A stretch of 64,000 bases of DNA from the sequence record PX441839.1; one strand, given 5' to 3'. The notes beneath the pieces were generated by a model. It was given only the letters and a program-made list of their open reading frames with translations. It searched no databases and had not been told where the DNA came from. This document shows positions 5,796-44,752 of this stretch, piece after piece. Position 1 is the stretch's first letter; every line of letters starts with the position of its first letter. Position numbers and translations under genes: made by a program. Source of the stretch: a phage.

Positions 5796-6904
5796 TATAT
5801 TGCTCCCACTCTCTTAAGTACACTTGAAAGGGTTGTTGGGTCATTATATTCCCTCTTCATGTATACCGATTGAAAAATAACAGATGCCCACTGACCTGCT
5901 GTAAACTTCCGATCAATACCCATGTGGTCTGTGAAATGAACACCATCAGGGAACCACATCTTATACTGATTGATTATTGTTGTCCACATTTCTTTTTCCG
6001 TTTTACACCCAGCAAGGAGCTTAAATGCGGACACTTCCCCAAATTTAATATCGAAGTTCTGATACGGCTTGACGTTATCTGCACTATCCCCAAACAACAT
6101 CTGATAGCCAAAGAACAGTTGGCCCCATCCTTTAACCTTGTTGTTGTCCATCCAAATCTCACCCATAGATTCATCGATCAACCAACACTCAGGGTGTTTC
6201 CAGGTTCTCTCGTTTGAGTCTCGCATGGAGTTGAACAGAAGAGACGGAACTTGAACTTGGTCTTTATCGAAGGATGCTACAATGTGACTGAACTTTCCAG
6301 TCTTTTTGTAATTCATATACCCCTTGTACCCAAGTATGGACAGGTAATCGTCTGCCTCGATACCGTCAATAACTACCGCCCCGTACTTACGAACAACATA
6401 ATCCCGAGTCTCTTGCAGTAGGAGTGGTCGAATAGAATCTTCTCGGTTCCCCTTATAGATCTCAGGTGTAGGCAATGCCAATCTGAAATTACCACTTCCG
6501 CCCAAAACCCCGTGACCATTTGGACATTCAAGATGTTCAAGAATTGCGTTAATCTTTATCTTCAAAAGGTGTAGGCAGTTTTCAACTGGTTCTGGTGTTT
6601 GCTTATCAAGGATTTCGAAATCATCCCTTGTCCAAGGTACAAATTTACGACCGGAAGCTAAACACTGAGCCTCTCGGTTAATATTCTGATCCTTTAACCA
6701 CCCACCAACAACATTCTTCTGACGACCCCAGAACTCGGTTTTATTTTTAAATTCCTTCTCAGCACCAGACTTCTTGTGTCGGGCAATGATAGTTCTTTTT
6801 TCTGCACCTGCCGCCGCAACATAACATGTTTGGTCAAGATCAAGTGCAACAACCACATCGTCTGTTACAATACTTTTAAGATCCTTCACTACGGGATAAC
6901 CCAT
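5795..6904 (-). CDS. 5'-3' exonuclease / flap endonuclease (FEN, RNase H-like)
   Basis: GIEADDYLSILG matches the 5'-3' exonuclease G.EADD motif; 369 aa. Confidence 0.6.
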   Translation of the reverse strand: MGYPVVKDLKSIVTDDVVVALDLDQTCYVAAAGAEKRTIIARHKKSGAEKEFKNKTEFWGRQKNVVGGWLKDQNINREAQCLASGRKFVPWTRDDFEILDKQTPEPVENCLHLLKIKINAILEHLECPNGHGVLGGSGNFRLALPTPEIYKGNREDSIRPLLLQETRDYVVRKYGAVVIDGIEADDYLSILGYKGYMNYKKTGKFSHIVASFDKDQVQVPSLLFNSMRDSNERTWKHPECWLIDESMGEIWMDNNKVKGWGQLFFGYQMLFGDSADNVKPYQNFDIKFGEVSAFKLLAGCKTEKEMWTTIINQYKMWFPDGVHFTDHMGIDRKFTAGQWASVIFQSVYMKREYNDPTTLSSVLKRVGAI

Positions 6905-39479: not shown

Positions 39480-40895
39480 ATGGCTTATAATGATAAGGTA
39501 GTTGAAGTTGAGGTCAACCTCGGCACCCAGCCTATTAGCACGGCAGGGTTTGAAACTCCGATGTTCCTTGCAATTCACAACGTATTCCCAGAGCGTGTGA
39601 GATTCTATATCTCCACGGAATCTATGGTGGAAGATGGTTTTGCAGTTGGATCTCCGGCACACCAGTTTGCAACAAACGCATTCATGGGTAACTTCAAGCC
39701 AAGCATGATTGCTATTGGTAGAATGGCTCAGTCTGCTGTCAAGGTAGATTTCACTGGCACAACCAACACTGATCGGGTTGTTGTTAACCTGACTGTAAAC
39801 AGGGTTGTAAAAGCTGTTCAGTTAACTCCGGCACCTGGTTCAACACCAGCGGCAATTGCAACTGCATTGGCAACTGCAATTACAGAAGACCAAGACCTCC
39901 CAACCATTACCGCAGTTGCTAACGGAACTTCTGTTACCATCACCGCAGGTGAAGGTGATGTGATGAGTGTTGGTAAGGGAGAGGGAAATTACAAGGTAGT
40001 TTCTGAATCACCGGAGACTGTGGCAACTGCACTTCCTCAAGTAATGGCAGAAAACCACGACTGGTATTTCCTGTCAACAGAGGCACGATCTGATGCAGAT
40101 ATTGTTGCAGCGGCGGAGTTCGCACAGGCAAACTACAAGCTACATGTTTTCAACAGTTCAGACCCCGATGCCTATGCACCGATGAATGTCAGTGCTTCTG
40201 TTTTTGACACCCTGAAAGCTCTGAGCTACACTTCTTTAGGAACAACTGATGCTGATGCGGATGTTGAGTTCACAGAAGGTTCAGTTGTTGGTGCGATGGC
40301 AGGTAATGACCCATCATATGGTGATTCTCTGCACCTGAAAACCATGCCTGGTATGAAGCCTTTCCAAGGTTCAGAAACCCAGCGTATGAATGCTTGGAAT
40401 AGGAACGCAAACACGTATCGTGCCATGTATGGCGGTAACAGCTACATCGAGGGTCGTGTTTCAAACTCTCAGTATGTTGACGTTATTCGCTTCTCACACT
40501 GGGTTAAATTCCGTATGGAAGAGTCCCTGTTTGCGTACATGAAGCGTCGTTCCGATATGGGTCTGTCAATGAAGATGTCAGACGCAGATCTTCCAGTAAT
40601 TAAATCTGTTCTGATGAACAACCCGATCAACATCGGTATCCGTAATGGCGGGATCTTGACTGGCTATGACTCTGTGAATAAGGTCATGTATGACCCGATT
40701 ATCACTGTGCCACGTCGAGCAGAGATCCCAACCAACGATCTTGCTAACCGTATCCTGCGTGATGTTAAAGTTGACTTAGTTTACAACAACTCACTGCATT
40801 ACGTCAAGATTCGTGCTTCTGTGGTTCTCGACCGTCCAGCAGGTCAAGGCACTAATGCCCAGACCCCTATGACCTCTTCCGCTGTAGGAGTGTAA
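39480..40895 (+). CDS. tail sheath protein
   Basis: 471 aa immediately upstream of a 160-aa tube-sized gene, chaperone and tape measure; call is positional. Confidence 0.5.
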   Translation: MAYNDKVVEVEVNLGTQPISTAGFETPMFLAIHNVFPERVRFYISTESMVEDGFAVGSPAHQFATNAFMGNFKPSMIAIGRMAQSAVKVDFTGTTNTDRVVVNLTVNRVVKAVQLTPAPGSTPAAIATALATAITEDQDLPTITAVANGTSVTITAGEGDVMSVGKGEGNYKVVSESPETVATALPQVMAENHDWYFLSTEARSDADIVAAAEFAQANYKLHVFNSSDPDAYAPMNVSASVFDTLKALSYTSLGTTDADADVEFTEGSVVGAMAGNDPSYGDSLHLKTMPGMKPFQGSETQRMNAWNRNANTYRAMYGGNSYIEGRVSNSQYVDVIRFSHWVKFRMEESLFAYMKRRSDMGLSMKMSDADLPVIKSVLMNNPINIGIRNGGILTGYDSVNKVMYDPIITVPRRAEIPTNDLANRILRDVKVDLVYNNSLHYVKIRASVVLDRPAGQGTNAQTPMTSSAVGV

Positions 40896-40898
40896 TGA

Positions 40899-41381
40899 AT
40901 GAGCACGAACGCATCTAAGATTATTACGTTTAATGCGTATGACCCAGAGAAAACTTTTCTCTACATGTTCGGTCAGAGAGTCAGCGGCTTCGCTGCTGAC
41001 ACCAAGATCGTCATCACCCGTAACAATGATAACATCATCCCCCATGTTGGTGTAGACGGAGAGATCAGTAACGCACTGGTACGTGACCGTTCTGGTGTGC
41101 TTACTGTTTCCTTACAGAACACTGCGCCGTGGAATGGTTATTTTGCACAATGGCAGAAACAGGCTGATGTGACAGGTCAGATTTATTTCCCTGTCCAGGT
41201 GGAAGGTTCACAGGGCCTGTCGATGAACACAATTGGGTGGATTCAGCGCCAACCTGACTTAACTTATGGTCAGGAAGTTGGGCAGATGGATTGGGAGATT
41301 GGTGTTCTTGACGCATGGCTGGCACCGGACAATATCCAAGGTGCTGCATTCGGACTCGCAGGTCTGATGGGCGTTATGTAA
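40899..41381 (+). CDS. tail tube protein
   Basis: 160 aa immediately after sheath candidate; positional. Confidence 0.5.
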   Translation: MSTNASKIITFNAYDPEKTFLYMFGQRVSGFAADTKIVITRNNDNIIPHVGVDGEISNALVRDRSGVLTVSLQNTAPWNGYFAQWQKQADVTGQIYFPVQVEGSQGLSMNTIGWIQRQPDLTYGQEVGQMDWEIGVLDAWLAPDNIQGAAFGLAGLMGVM

Positions 41382-41457
41382 TAACTCGTGAGCCACAAGG
41401 ATGTGGCCTTTATTCACAGAAGGATTTAGCTACTTATCTGACACAGGAGTGTACACG

Positions 41458-41931
41458 ATGATTAAGTTTAAGAAGTCCACAGAGATTACTCTGTGTGGTG
41501 GAAAGAGATTTACAATTTATCACTGGTCGCCTAGCCAGGTTATCAGAAACATGCCGAAGATTGGGCGATTGGTTGCTGTACCTATGGGGACCATGGCAGG
41601 TTCTGCCCTCACTGGTGGGGAAAACTTCCAAGATGCTGTTCCAACAGCTATCCTCTACATCCTCGACCAAATTGAAGACGGCGGTGATGAGATTATTAAG
41701 CTGATGCTTGAAGGTGTCGAGGTTGACGGAATGGGCGGTCAAATCGATATTGACGAAGTGTTTGATGGTCATGTTAACGATCTGTTTACCCTGTTGCAGA
41801 AAGTCATTGAAGTGAACTACGGCTGTTTTTTCGGCCAGGGCGGTTTCGGGGCACTGACAGGACTGTTCCAAAAAATGGGACTGGTGAAGGCAGTGGAAGA
41901 ACTGGATCAGACTCTGGAAACGGAAGCCTGA
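41458..41931 (+). CDS. tail assembly chaperone
   Basis: between tube and tape measure; ATG after AGGAG; A6 slippery run near 3' end. Confidence 0.5.
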   Translation: MIKFKKSTEITLCGGKRFTIYHWSPSQVIRNMPKIGRLVAVPMGTMAGSALTGGENFQDAVPTAILYILDQIEDGGDEIIKLMLEGVEVDGMGGQIDIDEVFDGHVNDLFTLLQKVIEVNYGCFFGQGGFGALTGLFQKMGLVKAVEELDQTLETEA

Positions 41932-42197
41932 GACCGCTGAGTACGGTAGAGAAAGCAATAGAGTTCACGAGAAAGAACTCATCTCTTAAGTGGTTCGACT
42001 ACCTGTACCTTAGAGTTATGGAACGCTTCAACGTTGATGAGTTGTCAATAGAGTCTGGAGACATGGAGGACCTTCTCAAGAAGAATGAATATCTTGATAT
42101 GAAGGACTACATAGAGGAAGCGAACCATAAGGAGCAGGAAGAACAGCGGAAACGCGCTCAGGCCGAAGCCGACGCCCGTAGGCGAAGAGGCTGGTAA
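41870..42197 (+). other. candidate -1 frameshift extension of tail assembly chaperone
   Basis: CCAAAAAATGG A-run at about 41870-41875; -1 frame is open from there to TAA at about 42195-42197, covering an otherwise non-coding 265-nt gap. Confidence 0.4.
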
Positions 42198-42203
42198 AAC
42201 ATA

Positions 42204-42238
42204 GGCCACGGTCGAAAGACCCTGGCCTTTTTCTTTTT
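42204..42238 (+). terminator. possible terminator
   Basis: imperfect hairpin GGCCA...TGGCC then TTTTTCTTTTT. Confidence 0.35.
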
Positions 42239-42248
42239 GGAGGGTATA

Positions 42249-44726
42249 ATGGCTTCGAGCAACCAGATCGTAACTAAAACGGTCAACAGGACTACGTTTG
42301 AAGTTGATAAGGCTTCATATAATAGTACGATCAAGAAAATACGCAGCGTCAAGAAGGAATGGGAAAAGGCAGGTGAGCCTATCTCAAAACCTAAGAATGA
42401 CCCTGCAAAGCAGTACAGTAGATCTGCCGAACAGATCAAACTTGTGAATAAGCGTCTCATGGAGACCCGCAAGAGAGAAGAAGAACGTGCAGTTGCTCAT
42501 AGCCTTGCCCTCGCTAAGAAAGAGGCTCGTGCCAAAGAGCAGATTCAGAAGCAGTCTGCGGCTCGTATCCGTCAAACTATGAATCAGATGACTGCAAAGA
42601 ACCCGCAAGCCGCTGAAATGAGGAAGTTTTATCAGCAGCAGGAGAGGGAGGCCAAGAAAGCCAGTCGTCGTATGCAGAATACCTCTCCAACTCCACTTGG
42701 ACCAATGAATATTCAGCGTATGAACTCTGTTCAGCTTCCTCCTAGGGGTGGTGCTGGAACAGGTATGATTGGGAATCCTAACAAGCCATATTCTCCAGAG
42801 ACGATAGCCAGGCAGAACGCAGAAATGGCAAGAGCTATTCGTCAGCAATCCAAACAAAAAGATAAAGCTACAGCAGAGCAGACAAGAAAGGCAAGGATCG
42901 AAGCAAACAGGCAAGCACGTATTCAGGACGTGATGGCACAGCAAAGGATCAGACTGTCTAGCAAGTACGGAAGCACATACAACTCAACACTTGGAAGGGA
43001 TAGCGCTGGAAGAGGTATCCAAGACCTTAACAGACAGTTTAAATCCGGCGCTCTGTCGGCTGGACAGTATAGACAAAGCATACAAGCACTTGAACGCCAG
43101 TTTAGGGCATCTCAAGGTGCAGCAATGTCTTTCGGTAGTGTCTTGGAGAACGTCAGAACAGGACTTGTTAGTGTTGGTGCCGCATATGGGGTATTCAACT
43201 CTGGTGCCGCTGTTCTTCAACAAGGTCAGTTCTTCCAGGGGCTTGAGGCATCCATGCTTATGGTGTCTAACTCCTCAGAAGAGGCTGCGGGAAGAATACA
43301 GTTTGTCCGTGATGAGTCCTACAGATTAGGTCTTTCTCTTAAAGAAGCTTCTCAGGGATATACCCAGATGGCTATCGCGGGTAAAGAACTGATGAGCGGA
43401 GATCAGTTGAACAGTTTGTTCTCTGCGTACTCTGAATACTCAACAGCCTTGCAAGTTGACCCTGTAAGATTCCAGCGCGGTATCATGGCTATCCAGCAGA
43501 TGATGGGTAAAGGCCAGGTAATGGCGGAAGAATTGAAGGGGCAGTTGTCAGAAGCAATACCTGGTTCACTGGACATCTTTGTTAAGGCGGCACAGGAGGC
43601 ATTTAACGATACCTCTATAGATACTGCCAAATTCATGAAGATGATGGAAAAAGGTGAAATCACGGCTAAAAAGCTTATGCCTCTGATCGGCAAGTATTTC
43701 AGCGAAGCAGCTAACCGTGGTGGTGCTCTGGAGAAAGCCTTGCAGGGGAACCGTGTTGCTATGCAGCGTATGCAGCAGTCATGGGTTAACATGCAGAACG
43801 CTATCTTCATGGGTGGATTCGGCGATGCAATGACTAAGATATTCAACGACCTCTCTCGTCTCATGGAAACAAACATGGACACTGCAAAGAGTTTCGGTGA
43901 AATACTCGGTCAATTAATCACTGGTGCCTGGGATGCCGCAACCGCAGTATACAACGCATTCGTGTTCATGGGCAGGGCAATTGAATACTTTGCGGAGAAG
44001 CTGGGTTACGAGGGCGACATACTCTCTGAAATGTTCGACTGGGCAGCGTATGTTGCAGGTGTCGGTCTGTTTATCATGGCCCTTAAGAAGGTGTACGGGA
44101 TTGTCTCATCAATCGCGGGACTGAGAGGAGCATTAGGCGGAGTCCGAGACGCATTGGGCGGAGACTTGGCGTCGGGAGGCAGAGCAGGAGGTCCAAATAC
44201 CGGAGGAAGAGGAGGAAGTCCTTGGGGAAGACCTTCTGGAGGCAGCGGAGGAGGCTGGCTTGGTAAGATCGGGGGAGGTCTAAAAGGACTTGGTGGATTT
44301 GCTCTGAGAAGAAACCCATATGTTACCGCAGCGATGATCGTCGGTGGTGAACAGCTTCTCAGTGAGGAGGGCCAGGCCAGAGGAAAGGCAATAGCTGATG
44401 CTATGGCACCGTCAAGGGATCTTCAAAACCCACTTGCGGCTGCAACTGGCGGTGACATGTCAACTCTTATGGCCCTAGCGTGGAACAGCTTGTCAGGTGG
44501 AGGATCTAAACCATCTCCTAACATAGACCCAGACAGGTTAGCGCAGAACGCTGTAGTTCAGACTAACCCGTTCCCATACCCACTCCCGCTTGCGGCACAG
44601 CAACAGCAAGAAGGTAAGATTACGGTTGAAATCAAGGCTGGTGATCTTAAGCAGTATATTCGTGCGGTTGTTGATGAGAATAACATGATGAACTTTAACT
44701 TGTTAACTCAAGGTGGTCAAGGATAA
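42249..44726 (+). CDS. tail tape measure protein
   Basis: about 825 aa, Ala/Gln/Arg-rich N-terminal helical region, Gly-rich C-terminal stretch, position after chaperone; ORF track start 42237 is a TTG. Confidence 0.65.
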   Translation: MASSNQIVTKTVNRTTFEVDKASYNSTIKKIRSVKKEWEKAGEPISKPKNDPAKQYSRSAEQIKLVNKRLMETRKREEERAVAHSLALAKKEARAKEQIQKQSAARIRQTMNQMTAKNPQAAEMRKFYQQQEREAKKASRRMQNTSPTPLGPMNIQRMNSVQLPPRGGAGTGMIGNPNKPYSPETIARQNAEMARAIRQQSKQKDKATAEQTRKARIEANRQARIQDVMAQQRIRLSSKYGSTYNSTLGRDSAGRGIQDLNRQFKSGALSAGQYRQSIQALERQFRASQGAAMSFGSVLENVRTGLVSVGAAYGVFNSGAAVLQQGQFFQGLEASMLMVSNSSEEAAGRIQFVRDESYRLGLSLKEASQGYTQMAIAGKELMSGDQLNSLFSAYSEYSTALQVDPVRFQRGIMAIQQMMGKGQVMAEELKGQLSEAIPGSLDIFVKAAQEAFNDTSIDTAKFMKMMEKGEITAKKLMPLIGKYFSEAANRGGALEKALQGNRVAMQRMQQSWVNMQNAIFMGGFGDAMTKIFNDLSRLMETNMDTAKSFGEILGQLITGAWDAATAVYNAFVFMGRAIEYFAEKLGYEGDILSEMFDWAAYVAGVGLFIMALKKVYGIVSSIAGLRGALGGVRDALGGDLASGGRAGGPNTGGRGGSPWGRPSGGSGGGWLGKIGGGLKGLGGFALRRNPYVTAAMIVGGEQLLSEEGQARGKAIADAMAPSRDLQNPLAAATGGDMSTLMALAWNSLSGGGSKPSPNIDPDRLAQNAVVQTNPFPYPLPLAAQQQQEGKITVEIKAGDLKQYIRAVVDENNMMNFNLLTQGGQG

Positions 44727-44729
44727 CAA

Positions 44730-44752
44730 GGGGGCTTCGGCCCCCTTTTTTA
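44730..44752 (+). terminator. rho-independent terminator
   Basis: GGGGGC-TTCG-GCCCCC then TTTTTT. Confidence 0.7.

Follow-up and report, generated by a model that had tools for sequence, protein, structure and literature searches.

The window analyzed here, a stretch of 64,000 nt of sequence record PX441839.1 (one strand, 5′ to 3′), comes from a large myovirus of the Vequintavirinae type. On its + strand a tail sheath gene (39480–40895, 471 aa, taken from the ORF list; PHROG 205 'tail sheath', E 4.7e-105) is followed by a tail tube gene (40899–41381, 160 aa; Pfam PF11681 KPP10_Orf10, E 2.4e-9; PHROG 280), whose homologue in phage 4MG is annotated as tail tube, and then by a 157-aa ORF, an apparently empty 317 nt, and the gene for the tape measure protein (ATG 42249 to 44726, 825 aa; Pfam PF20155 TMP_3, E 8.9e-19; PHROG 5255, E 4.6e-280), which has the ribosome-binding site GGAGGG at 42239–42244. 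The 157-aa ORF runs from ATG 41458 to 41931, with TGA at 41929–41931, and has a ribosome-binding site, AGGAG (41445–41449), that can be read from the sequence 8 nt before the ATG. Its translation matches Pfam PF21822 Phage_TAC_15 over residues 14–126 (E 1.7e-20, 74.3 bits, gathering cut-off 22) and PHROG 3840 'tail assembly chaperone' (E 1e-55), which marks it as the short, G-like chaperone (TAC-N) in what we call the 0 frame. The first-pass annotation of this DNA had placed a chaperone gene between tube and tape measure, and ORFs, Pfam and PHROG all bear this out. By megablast against a phage collection, the 1.4 kb from 40899 to 42300 are 90% identical to Salmonella phage SSBI34 and match nothing else.

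We compared the locus with 49 related loci, comprising 20 annotated phage genomes and 29 viral metagenome contigs; together with the window these make 50 sequences, 39 of them distinct around the slip site proposed below. The set covers Vequintavirinae, Stephanstirmvirinae (phi92 type), Felix O1-like phages, Plateaulakevirus, Barbavirus, and Vibrio and Pseudaeromonas phages, and chaperone identity to the window falls to about 25% within it. One of the two patterns used in the search for loci contained a Phe-Phe motif, which biases the amino acids recovered, not the choice of codons. Within this set, Rheinheimera phage Barba8S carries an HNH endonuclease gene on the minus strand between the chaperone locus and the tape measure gene (L020:2105–2743), the gap there being 965 nt, and the RefSeq record of Escherichia phage V18 gives the tape measure as two overlapping CDS (gp052 and gp051; L004:2283–3462) where relatives have one, a split that may come from a frameshift in sequencing or be a true break in the gene.

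The −1 frame of the window is free of stop codons from 41811 to a TAA at 42195–42197, a run of 128 codons that ends 266 nt beyond the 0-frame stop. This confirms the claim of the first-pass annotation that the −1 frame is open across the apparent gap to a TAA at about 42195; that annotation, which had placed the shift at a run of six A residues, had missed that the open frame extends a further 59 nt upstream of it. The interval in which a shift from the 0 frame into the −1 frame is possible, where the two frames overlap, is 41811–41931 (121 nt). An open −1 frame of this length is beyond chance, since only 9 of 20,000 shuffles of 41811–42194 keep it free of stops. Other ways past the chaperone stop are closed: the +1 frame terminates after 58 nt in the window and after 4–61 nt across all 50 sequences, and the 0 frame of the window has a second stop two codons past the first, so that neither a +1 frameshift nor stop-codon readthrough is possible, and we rejected both. 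Conservation of the −1 frame in related phages, which had been named as a check on the frameshift reading, is found in all relatives that reach the −1 stop: the −1 extension past the chaperone stop measures 176–296 nt in these 48 of the 49 related loci, and in the remaining one (L022) the contig ends with the −1 frame still open. The window thus has, between its tube and tape-measure genes, the overlapping pair of ORFs of a G/GT-type locus.

Substitutions within the gap follow the −1 frame. Relative to SSBI34, the gap has 24 substitutions, 21 of which fall on third positions of −1-frame codons; only 2 of its 87 residues differ in this frame, as against 22–23 residues and 6–8 stops when the same alignment is read in the other two frames. 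An alignment of 39 of the −1-frame products shows a short basic/aromatic motif, a variable linker, a conserved domain and a basic tail. The motif is R-F-R in the window (CGG TTT CGG, 41841–41849, between heptamer and A6 run), where it overlaps a 0-frame G-F-G. It is kept as RFR, takes the form RYW in distant metagenomic relatives (L045–L049), and is departed from in the Vibrio, Barbavirus, Plateaulakevirus (L016), KLEP7 and Felix O1-like (FG1m) sequences. In V18-like phages, 0-frame TTC GGG has become TTA GGA, changing Phe-Gly to Leu-Gly, while the −1-frame Arg is kept (CGG to AGG). The linker (41850–41936) comprises about 30 residues rich in Gly, Ser, Thr and Pro, and the conserved T-like C-terminal domain, with its basic tail, occupies 41937–42194 (about 80 aa). 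Residues 166–245 of the fused translation match PHROG 10409 and PHROG 8811, both listed under 'unknown function'. The conserved −1 ORF, the conserved protein and the third-position substitutions uphold the claim that the gap is coding, and, as judged from sequence, the coding frame is −1.

A coding gap could also be a small gene with a start of its own, which would need no frameshift. The window does contain an ATG-started ORF of 59 aa (42018–42197), and small gap ORFs have been called in public records, among them CR3_019 (L002:2064–2246), phi92 gp133 (L005:1974–2201), 4MG_056 (L011:2097–2252) and FG1m CDS_0070 (L018:1896–2135); PHROGs 10409 and 8811 were evidently built from such mis-called small ORFs. 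However, conservation of the protein begins about 23 residues before ATG 42018, and the Met there is not conserved, relatives having Leu, Val or Lys in its place; the annotated gap ORFs have differing starts and lengths (33–82 aa); the −1 ORF overlaps the chaperone gene in every relative, by 79–247 nt and always with an in-phase slippery heptamer inside the overlap; and a separate gene would leave unexplained the suppression of synonymous change in the chaperone 3′ end that is described below. What the relatives share is a second ORF in the −1 frame that overlaps the 3′ end of the first and has no conserved start, as is characteristic of G/GT-type pairs. We consider a separate gene extremely improbable, and we read the small gap ORFs, on their sequences, as fragments of the C-terminal domain of a long chaperone.

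Beyond the −1 stop and ahead of the tape-measure ribosome-binding site lies a terminator-like hairpin with a GAAA loop (42203–42228), followed by TTTTTCTTTTT, the whole element spanning 42203–42238 on the + strand. It folds at −19.1 kcal/mol (z −3.36; 0 of 200 shuffles fold as well) and was partly detected in a terminator scan. A hairpin at this place, with differing stem sequences, is present in other Vequintavirinae and in phage 4L372D, and phi92-like and Felix O1-like phages lack one; the hairpin may set the level of the tube/chaperone transcript relative to that of the tape measure. Terminator-like GC hairpins with T-runs also follow the tube gene (41392–41407) and the tape-measure gene (44728–44747).

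The overlap of the window contains exactly one canonical slippery heptamer in phase, T TTT TTC at 41826–41832, read in the 0 frame as TGT TTT TTC (C123, F124 and F125); it had gone unnoticed in the first-pass annotation, and we propose it as the site of a −1 slip. Canonical in-phase heptamers occur at 0.0034 per codon in the genes of the window, so that about 0.14 would be expected by chance in an overlap of 40 codons; finding a heptamer is weak support when taken alone, and the argument depends on how the site compares among relatives. Elsewhere in the window, TTTTTTC occurs on the + strand at 6796, 10792 and 13551, in no instance inside a long + strand ORF. Among the 39 distinct sequences, which are relatives and therefore do not give independent counts, T TTT TTC is identical in 35 (Vequintavirinae, Stephanstirmvirinae, Felixounavirus, Plateaulakevirus and metagenomic), and the other four have sites of their own near the 3′ end, namely in-phase T TTT TTT, C CCT TTT, A AAT TTT or G GGA AAG. 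An in-phase heptamer is kept in 50 of 50 sequences, and the arrangement and the slip site are thus retained despite the divergence of the sequences around them. The base preceding the two Phe codons is always T, whatever the codon (TGT, CCT, AGT or TCT), and in the same sequences synonymous variation is seen in the Gly, Tyr, Val and Asn codons on either side. Elsewhere in these genes Phe is encoded by TTT and TTC at 138:96. The short protein also keeps Phe-Phe as residues, so selection on the protein accounts for part of the conservation. What stands out is that the heptamer is held strictly at the nucleotide level over deep divergence.

The position at which synonymous change becomes constrained coincides with the heptamer. 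In 27 Vequintavirinae sequences, synonymous differences, counted between pairs sharing the amino acid in a contrast that is not phylogeny-aware and in which the segments of one alignment serve as an internal control that is only partial for kinship, amount to 0.536 for codons 2–119, upstream of the heptamer, to 0.003 (3/961 pairs) for codons 123–125, the heptamer itself, to 0.288 for codons 126–137, between the heptamer and the position of the A run, and to 0.344 for codons 138–157, from the A-run position to the stop. At codons 128–130 (GGC GGT TTC), which specify R-F-R in the −1 frame just past the shift point, the difference is 0.00. Because the value is 0.003 at codons 123–125 and 0.288 before the A-run position is reached, suppression begins at the heptamer and not at the A run. 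We conclude that −1-frame coding constraint applies to the chaperone 3′ end from the heptamer onward.

The A run to which the first-pass annotation had assigned the shift is present exactly where it was reported (41870–41875, within CCAAAAAATGG at 41868–41878), 44 nt downstream of the heptamer. A −1 shift there would move a single tRNA-Lys from AAA 41872–41874 to AAA 41871–41873 and would likewise yield 246 aa, with the junction GLFQK-NGTGEG. The run lies inside the overlap at a point where the −1 frame is open, and A_AA.A is measurably shift-prone in E. coli given a strong stimulator (PMC4066793), so that it could offer a minor second route into the −1 frame. Of the six tetramers found to be shift-prone in E. 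coli, however, A_AA.A is the weakest, and tetramers hardly shift without a stimulator (PMC4066793); for the A6 run we found no stimulator structure. Read in the 0 frame the run is CAA AAA ATG, which contains no X XXY YYZ and has only the A_AAA tetramer (41871–41874) in phase. Such a run is limited to the window and SSBI34 among the 39 distinct sequences, relatives having, for example, AAA CGT, AAC TTC or CAG CAG at the same position. The synonymous suppression of codons 126–137 and the RFR motif that is conserved in the −1 frame are both found 5′ of the run. In the centroid fold, and in the window only, the run also makes up the loop of a small hairpin (GGACUGUUCC AAAAA UGGGACUGG, 41860–41883). 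The outer stem of this hairpin starts about 19 nt beyond the heptamer and the inner hairpin (41862–41885) about 29 nt beyond it; that start is too far from the heptamer for a typical stimulator, and the hairpin is not conserved in relatives. That ribosomes enter the −1 frame principally at the A run is, on this evidence, barely credible; the run is at most a trace side route and cannot be the selected site. The first-pass annotation had therefore mis-assigned the slip site by 44 nt, and its general interpretation was right: a G/GT-type −1 frameshift in the tail assembly chaperone is supported by the gene order, by the conserved −1 frame and by the heptamer at 41826–41832.

The heptamer contains a homopolymer run of six T residues, and a shift in frame could in principle arise there during transcription, by RNA polymerase adding one U to the run and the edited mRNA then being read normally; one extra U would give an identical protein. 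E. coli genes contain fewer A7/U7 motifs than expected, possibly as a result of transcriptional slippage (PMC4066793). Yet the T run here is only six long and is always in X XXY YYZ phase. Slippage by bacterial RNA polymerase usually needs a homopolymer of about 8–9 nt. The mixed heptamers of relatives (C CCT TTT, A AAT TTT and G GGA AAG) would be poor substrates for polymerase stutter and good ones for tandem tRNA slippage; that the four exceptional sequences preserve X XXY YYZ using other bases argues for tandem tRNA slippage and not for a homopolymer effect. We infer that the slippage is ribosomal, and we judge transcriptional slippage a very unlikely source of the long form.

Sequence elements that could stimulate slippage were sought on both sides of the heptamer. 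Downstream, the 99 nt after the heptamer of the window fold no better than shuffled sequences (z −0.81), and RNAalifold applied to 17 sequences returned a consensus structure of 0 pairs; the window shows no hairpin or pseudoknot a few nucleotides downstream of the kind found in dnaX-type sites. Of the slippery site and downstream structure that the first-pass annotation had proposed to look for, the former is thus present as a canonical heptamer, and a conserved structure is not found. Upstream, most relatives have a GGAGG-type element 11–13 nt before the heptamer that pairs with the anti-SD sequence at −6 to −10.6 kcal/mol. This GGAGG(T) element is the best anti-SD match of each gene (for example L004:1841–1848, and also in L012, L014, L018 and L045–L048). 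In the CR3/phiTE group, AAGGTGGT is found instead, 18 nt before the heptamer. The Glu codon at the SD-like site is GAG in most relatives, whereas GAA predominates elsewhere (221:115). At the equivalent site of the window (41806–41815), the window and SSBI34 have a degraded GAAGTG, at 41809–41814 in the window, where phi92 has GAGGTG; it pairs at −1.9 kcal/mol, which equals background: the best SD-like match of the window, GAAGTGAA, reaches the same −1.9 kcal/mol, and 36% of upstream 8-mers equal it. The window accordingly has no SD-like element at the distance of about 10–14 nt that is typical of dnaX-type sites. The ten tRNA genes of the window (cluster 20173–22361, + strand: Thr, Met, Tyr, Ser, Asn, Asp, Ile, Pro, Gln and Gly) include none for Phe or Lys, and a role for phage-encoded tRNAs was rejected.

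In E. coli, heptamers of the H_HH.U_UU.Y type rank with the most efficient ones, and IS elements make use of U_UU.U_UU.C (PMC4066793). Since no stimulator was found in the window, the heptamer there probably acts alone at a low level, and, with the SD-like element missing, the efficiency of shifting could be very low; low-level shifting on the bare heptamer is what we would probably expect in this phage. In relatives, the SD-like element may act as a dnaX-like stimulator. Tentatively, and with some doubt, we entertain the possibility that the GGAGG of the relatives sets the ratio of short to long product in the manner of dnaX and that the lineage of the window and SSBI34 has lost it and uses the bare heptamer; if so, closely related phages would tune the same frameshift to different levels.

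Taken together, the data lead us to propose that a short and a long chaperone are, very probably, made from one gene through a −1 slip at T TTT TTC 41826–41832. Most ribosomes would read 41458–41931 and produce the 157-aa G-like chaperone. A minority, on reaching the heptamer with one tRNA-Phe on TTT 41827–41829 in the P site and another on TTC 41830–41832 in the A site, would undergo a tandem −1 slip in which both tRNAs move back one base onto TTT TTT, and would resume at CGG 41832 in the −1 frame, reading on to the TAA. The −1-frame part (41832–42197, + strand) adds 121 codons and the stop, and the predicted full product, join(41458..41832,41832..42197), is a GT-like protein (TAC-NC) of 246 aa with the junction NYGCFF-RPGRFR, consisting of the chaperone domain (residues 1–125), a flexible Gly/Ser-rich linker, a C-terminal domain of about 80 aa and a basic tail. 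The shift would fall at the end of a folded domain, given that the Pfam match ends at residue 126 and that AlphaFold confidence is lost from residue 126: in a model of the short form with mean pLDDT 67, values are below 50 for residues 126–131 and 140–157. If the two products work as lambda G and GT do, the N-terminal part common to both would coat the tape-measure protein, tube subunits would be recruited by the C-terminal domain that only the rare long form has, and both forms would be missing from the virion.

The long chaperone is unannotated here and apparently across Vequintavirinae and Stephanstirmvirinae (hundreds of genomes), where a fragment of it is entered as a small hypothetical protein. 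No join annotation is found in any of the Vequintavirinae or Stephanstirmvirinae records inspected, the fused protein has 49 database homologues, every one a short form (152–162 aa) with PF21822, and a literature search returned no report specific to this frameshift in rV5, Vequintavirus, phi92 or Certrevirus. The corrected slip site gives the right 246-aa product and a definite junction peptide. The finding adds one more clade to a very well-known rule and will not surprise a specialist; its value is for annotation, and the only mildly new thread is the candidate SD-like element, present in most relatives and lost in the lineage of the window.

The frameshift in tail chaperones is conserved in tailed phages, and in lambda the ratio of G to GT is about 30:1 (PMC5009743, from which we take the lambda work of Levin et al., 1993, and of Xu, Hendrix and Duda, 2004, 2013, 2014, as summarized there). 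Like lambda G/GT, the locus in the window has two overlapping ORFs just upstream of the tape measure, the second in the −1 frame and without its own start; the predicted long form likewise combines the N-terminal part of the short form with an extra C-terminal domain; and the shift would likewise fall at the end of a folded domain. Unlike in lambda, where the heptamer is G GGA AAG, the heptamer here is T TTT TTC, and the phage is a contractile-tailed myovirus in which the upstream tube gene is preceded by a sheath gene. Lambda G/GT is not known to need a downstream structure either.

Similarity searches with the short chaperone gave no link to families beyond its own: against Pfam, only TAC_15 matched, with no detectable similarity to other chaperone families; NCBIfam gave no match; phmmer against the PDB gave nothing below E 0.38; and Foldseek of the AlphaFold model, a model of only moderate confidence (pLDDT 67), gave a best E of 2.1 against the PDB. 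Phage P2 is a myovirus with the order sheath, tube, small chaperone ORFs, tape measure, in which E is much shorter. Its E/E+E′ pair reportedly arises when ribosomes shift by −1 at the T-rich heptamer T TTT TTG (Christie et al., 2002). P2 would thus resemble the window in gene order and in the kind of shift; the Pfam search detected no sequence relationship to P2 E.

The GGAGG at 11–13 nt in relatives resembles the signal of E. coli dnaX, whose SD-like element has a similar spacing. Unlike dnaX, the window has this element degraded to GAAGTG and has no conserved downstream hairpin.

Close parallels come from neighboring phage groups. A 2025 paper on phage Adele describes a −1 frameshift at a conserved GTTTTT in the tail chaperones of Vandenendeviridae and Andersonviridae, remarks that the chaperone gap is routinely given a hypothetical protein in databases, and treats Vequintavirinae as a related clade, its TAC section covering Vandenendeviridae and Andersonviridae only (PMC12846349). 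The window shares with these two families the chaperone family, the layout of the locus and the GTTTTT/T TTT TTC motif near the 3′ end. For the Felix O1-like phage Moogle (KM236239), a chaperone 'with translational frameshift' was published in 2015 (PMC4319497), and its record gives, at the homologous locus, a two-piece join that fits a shift at the in-phase T TTT TTC.
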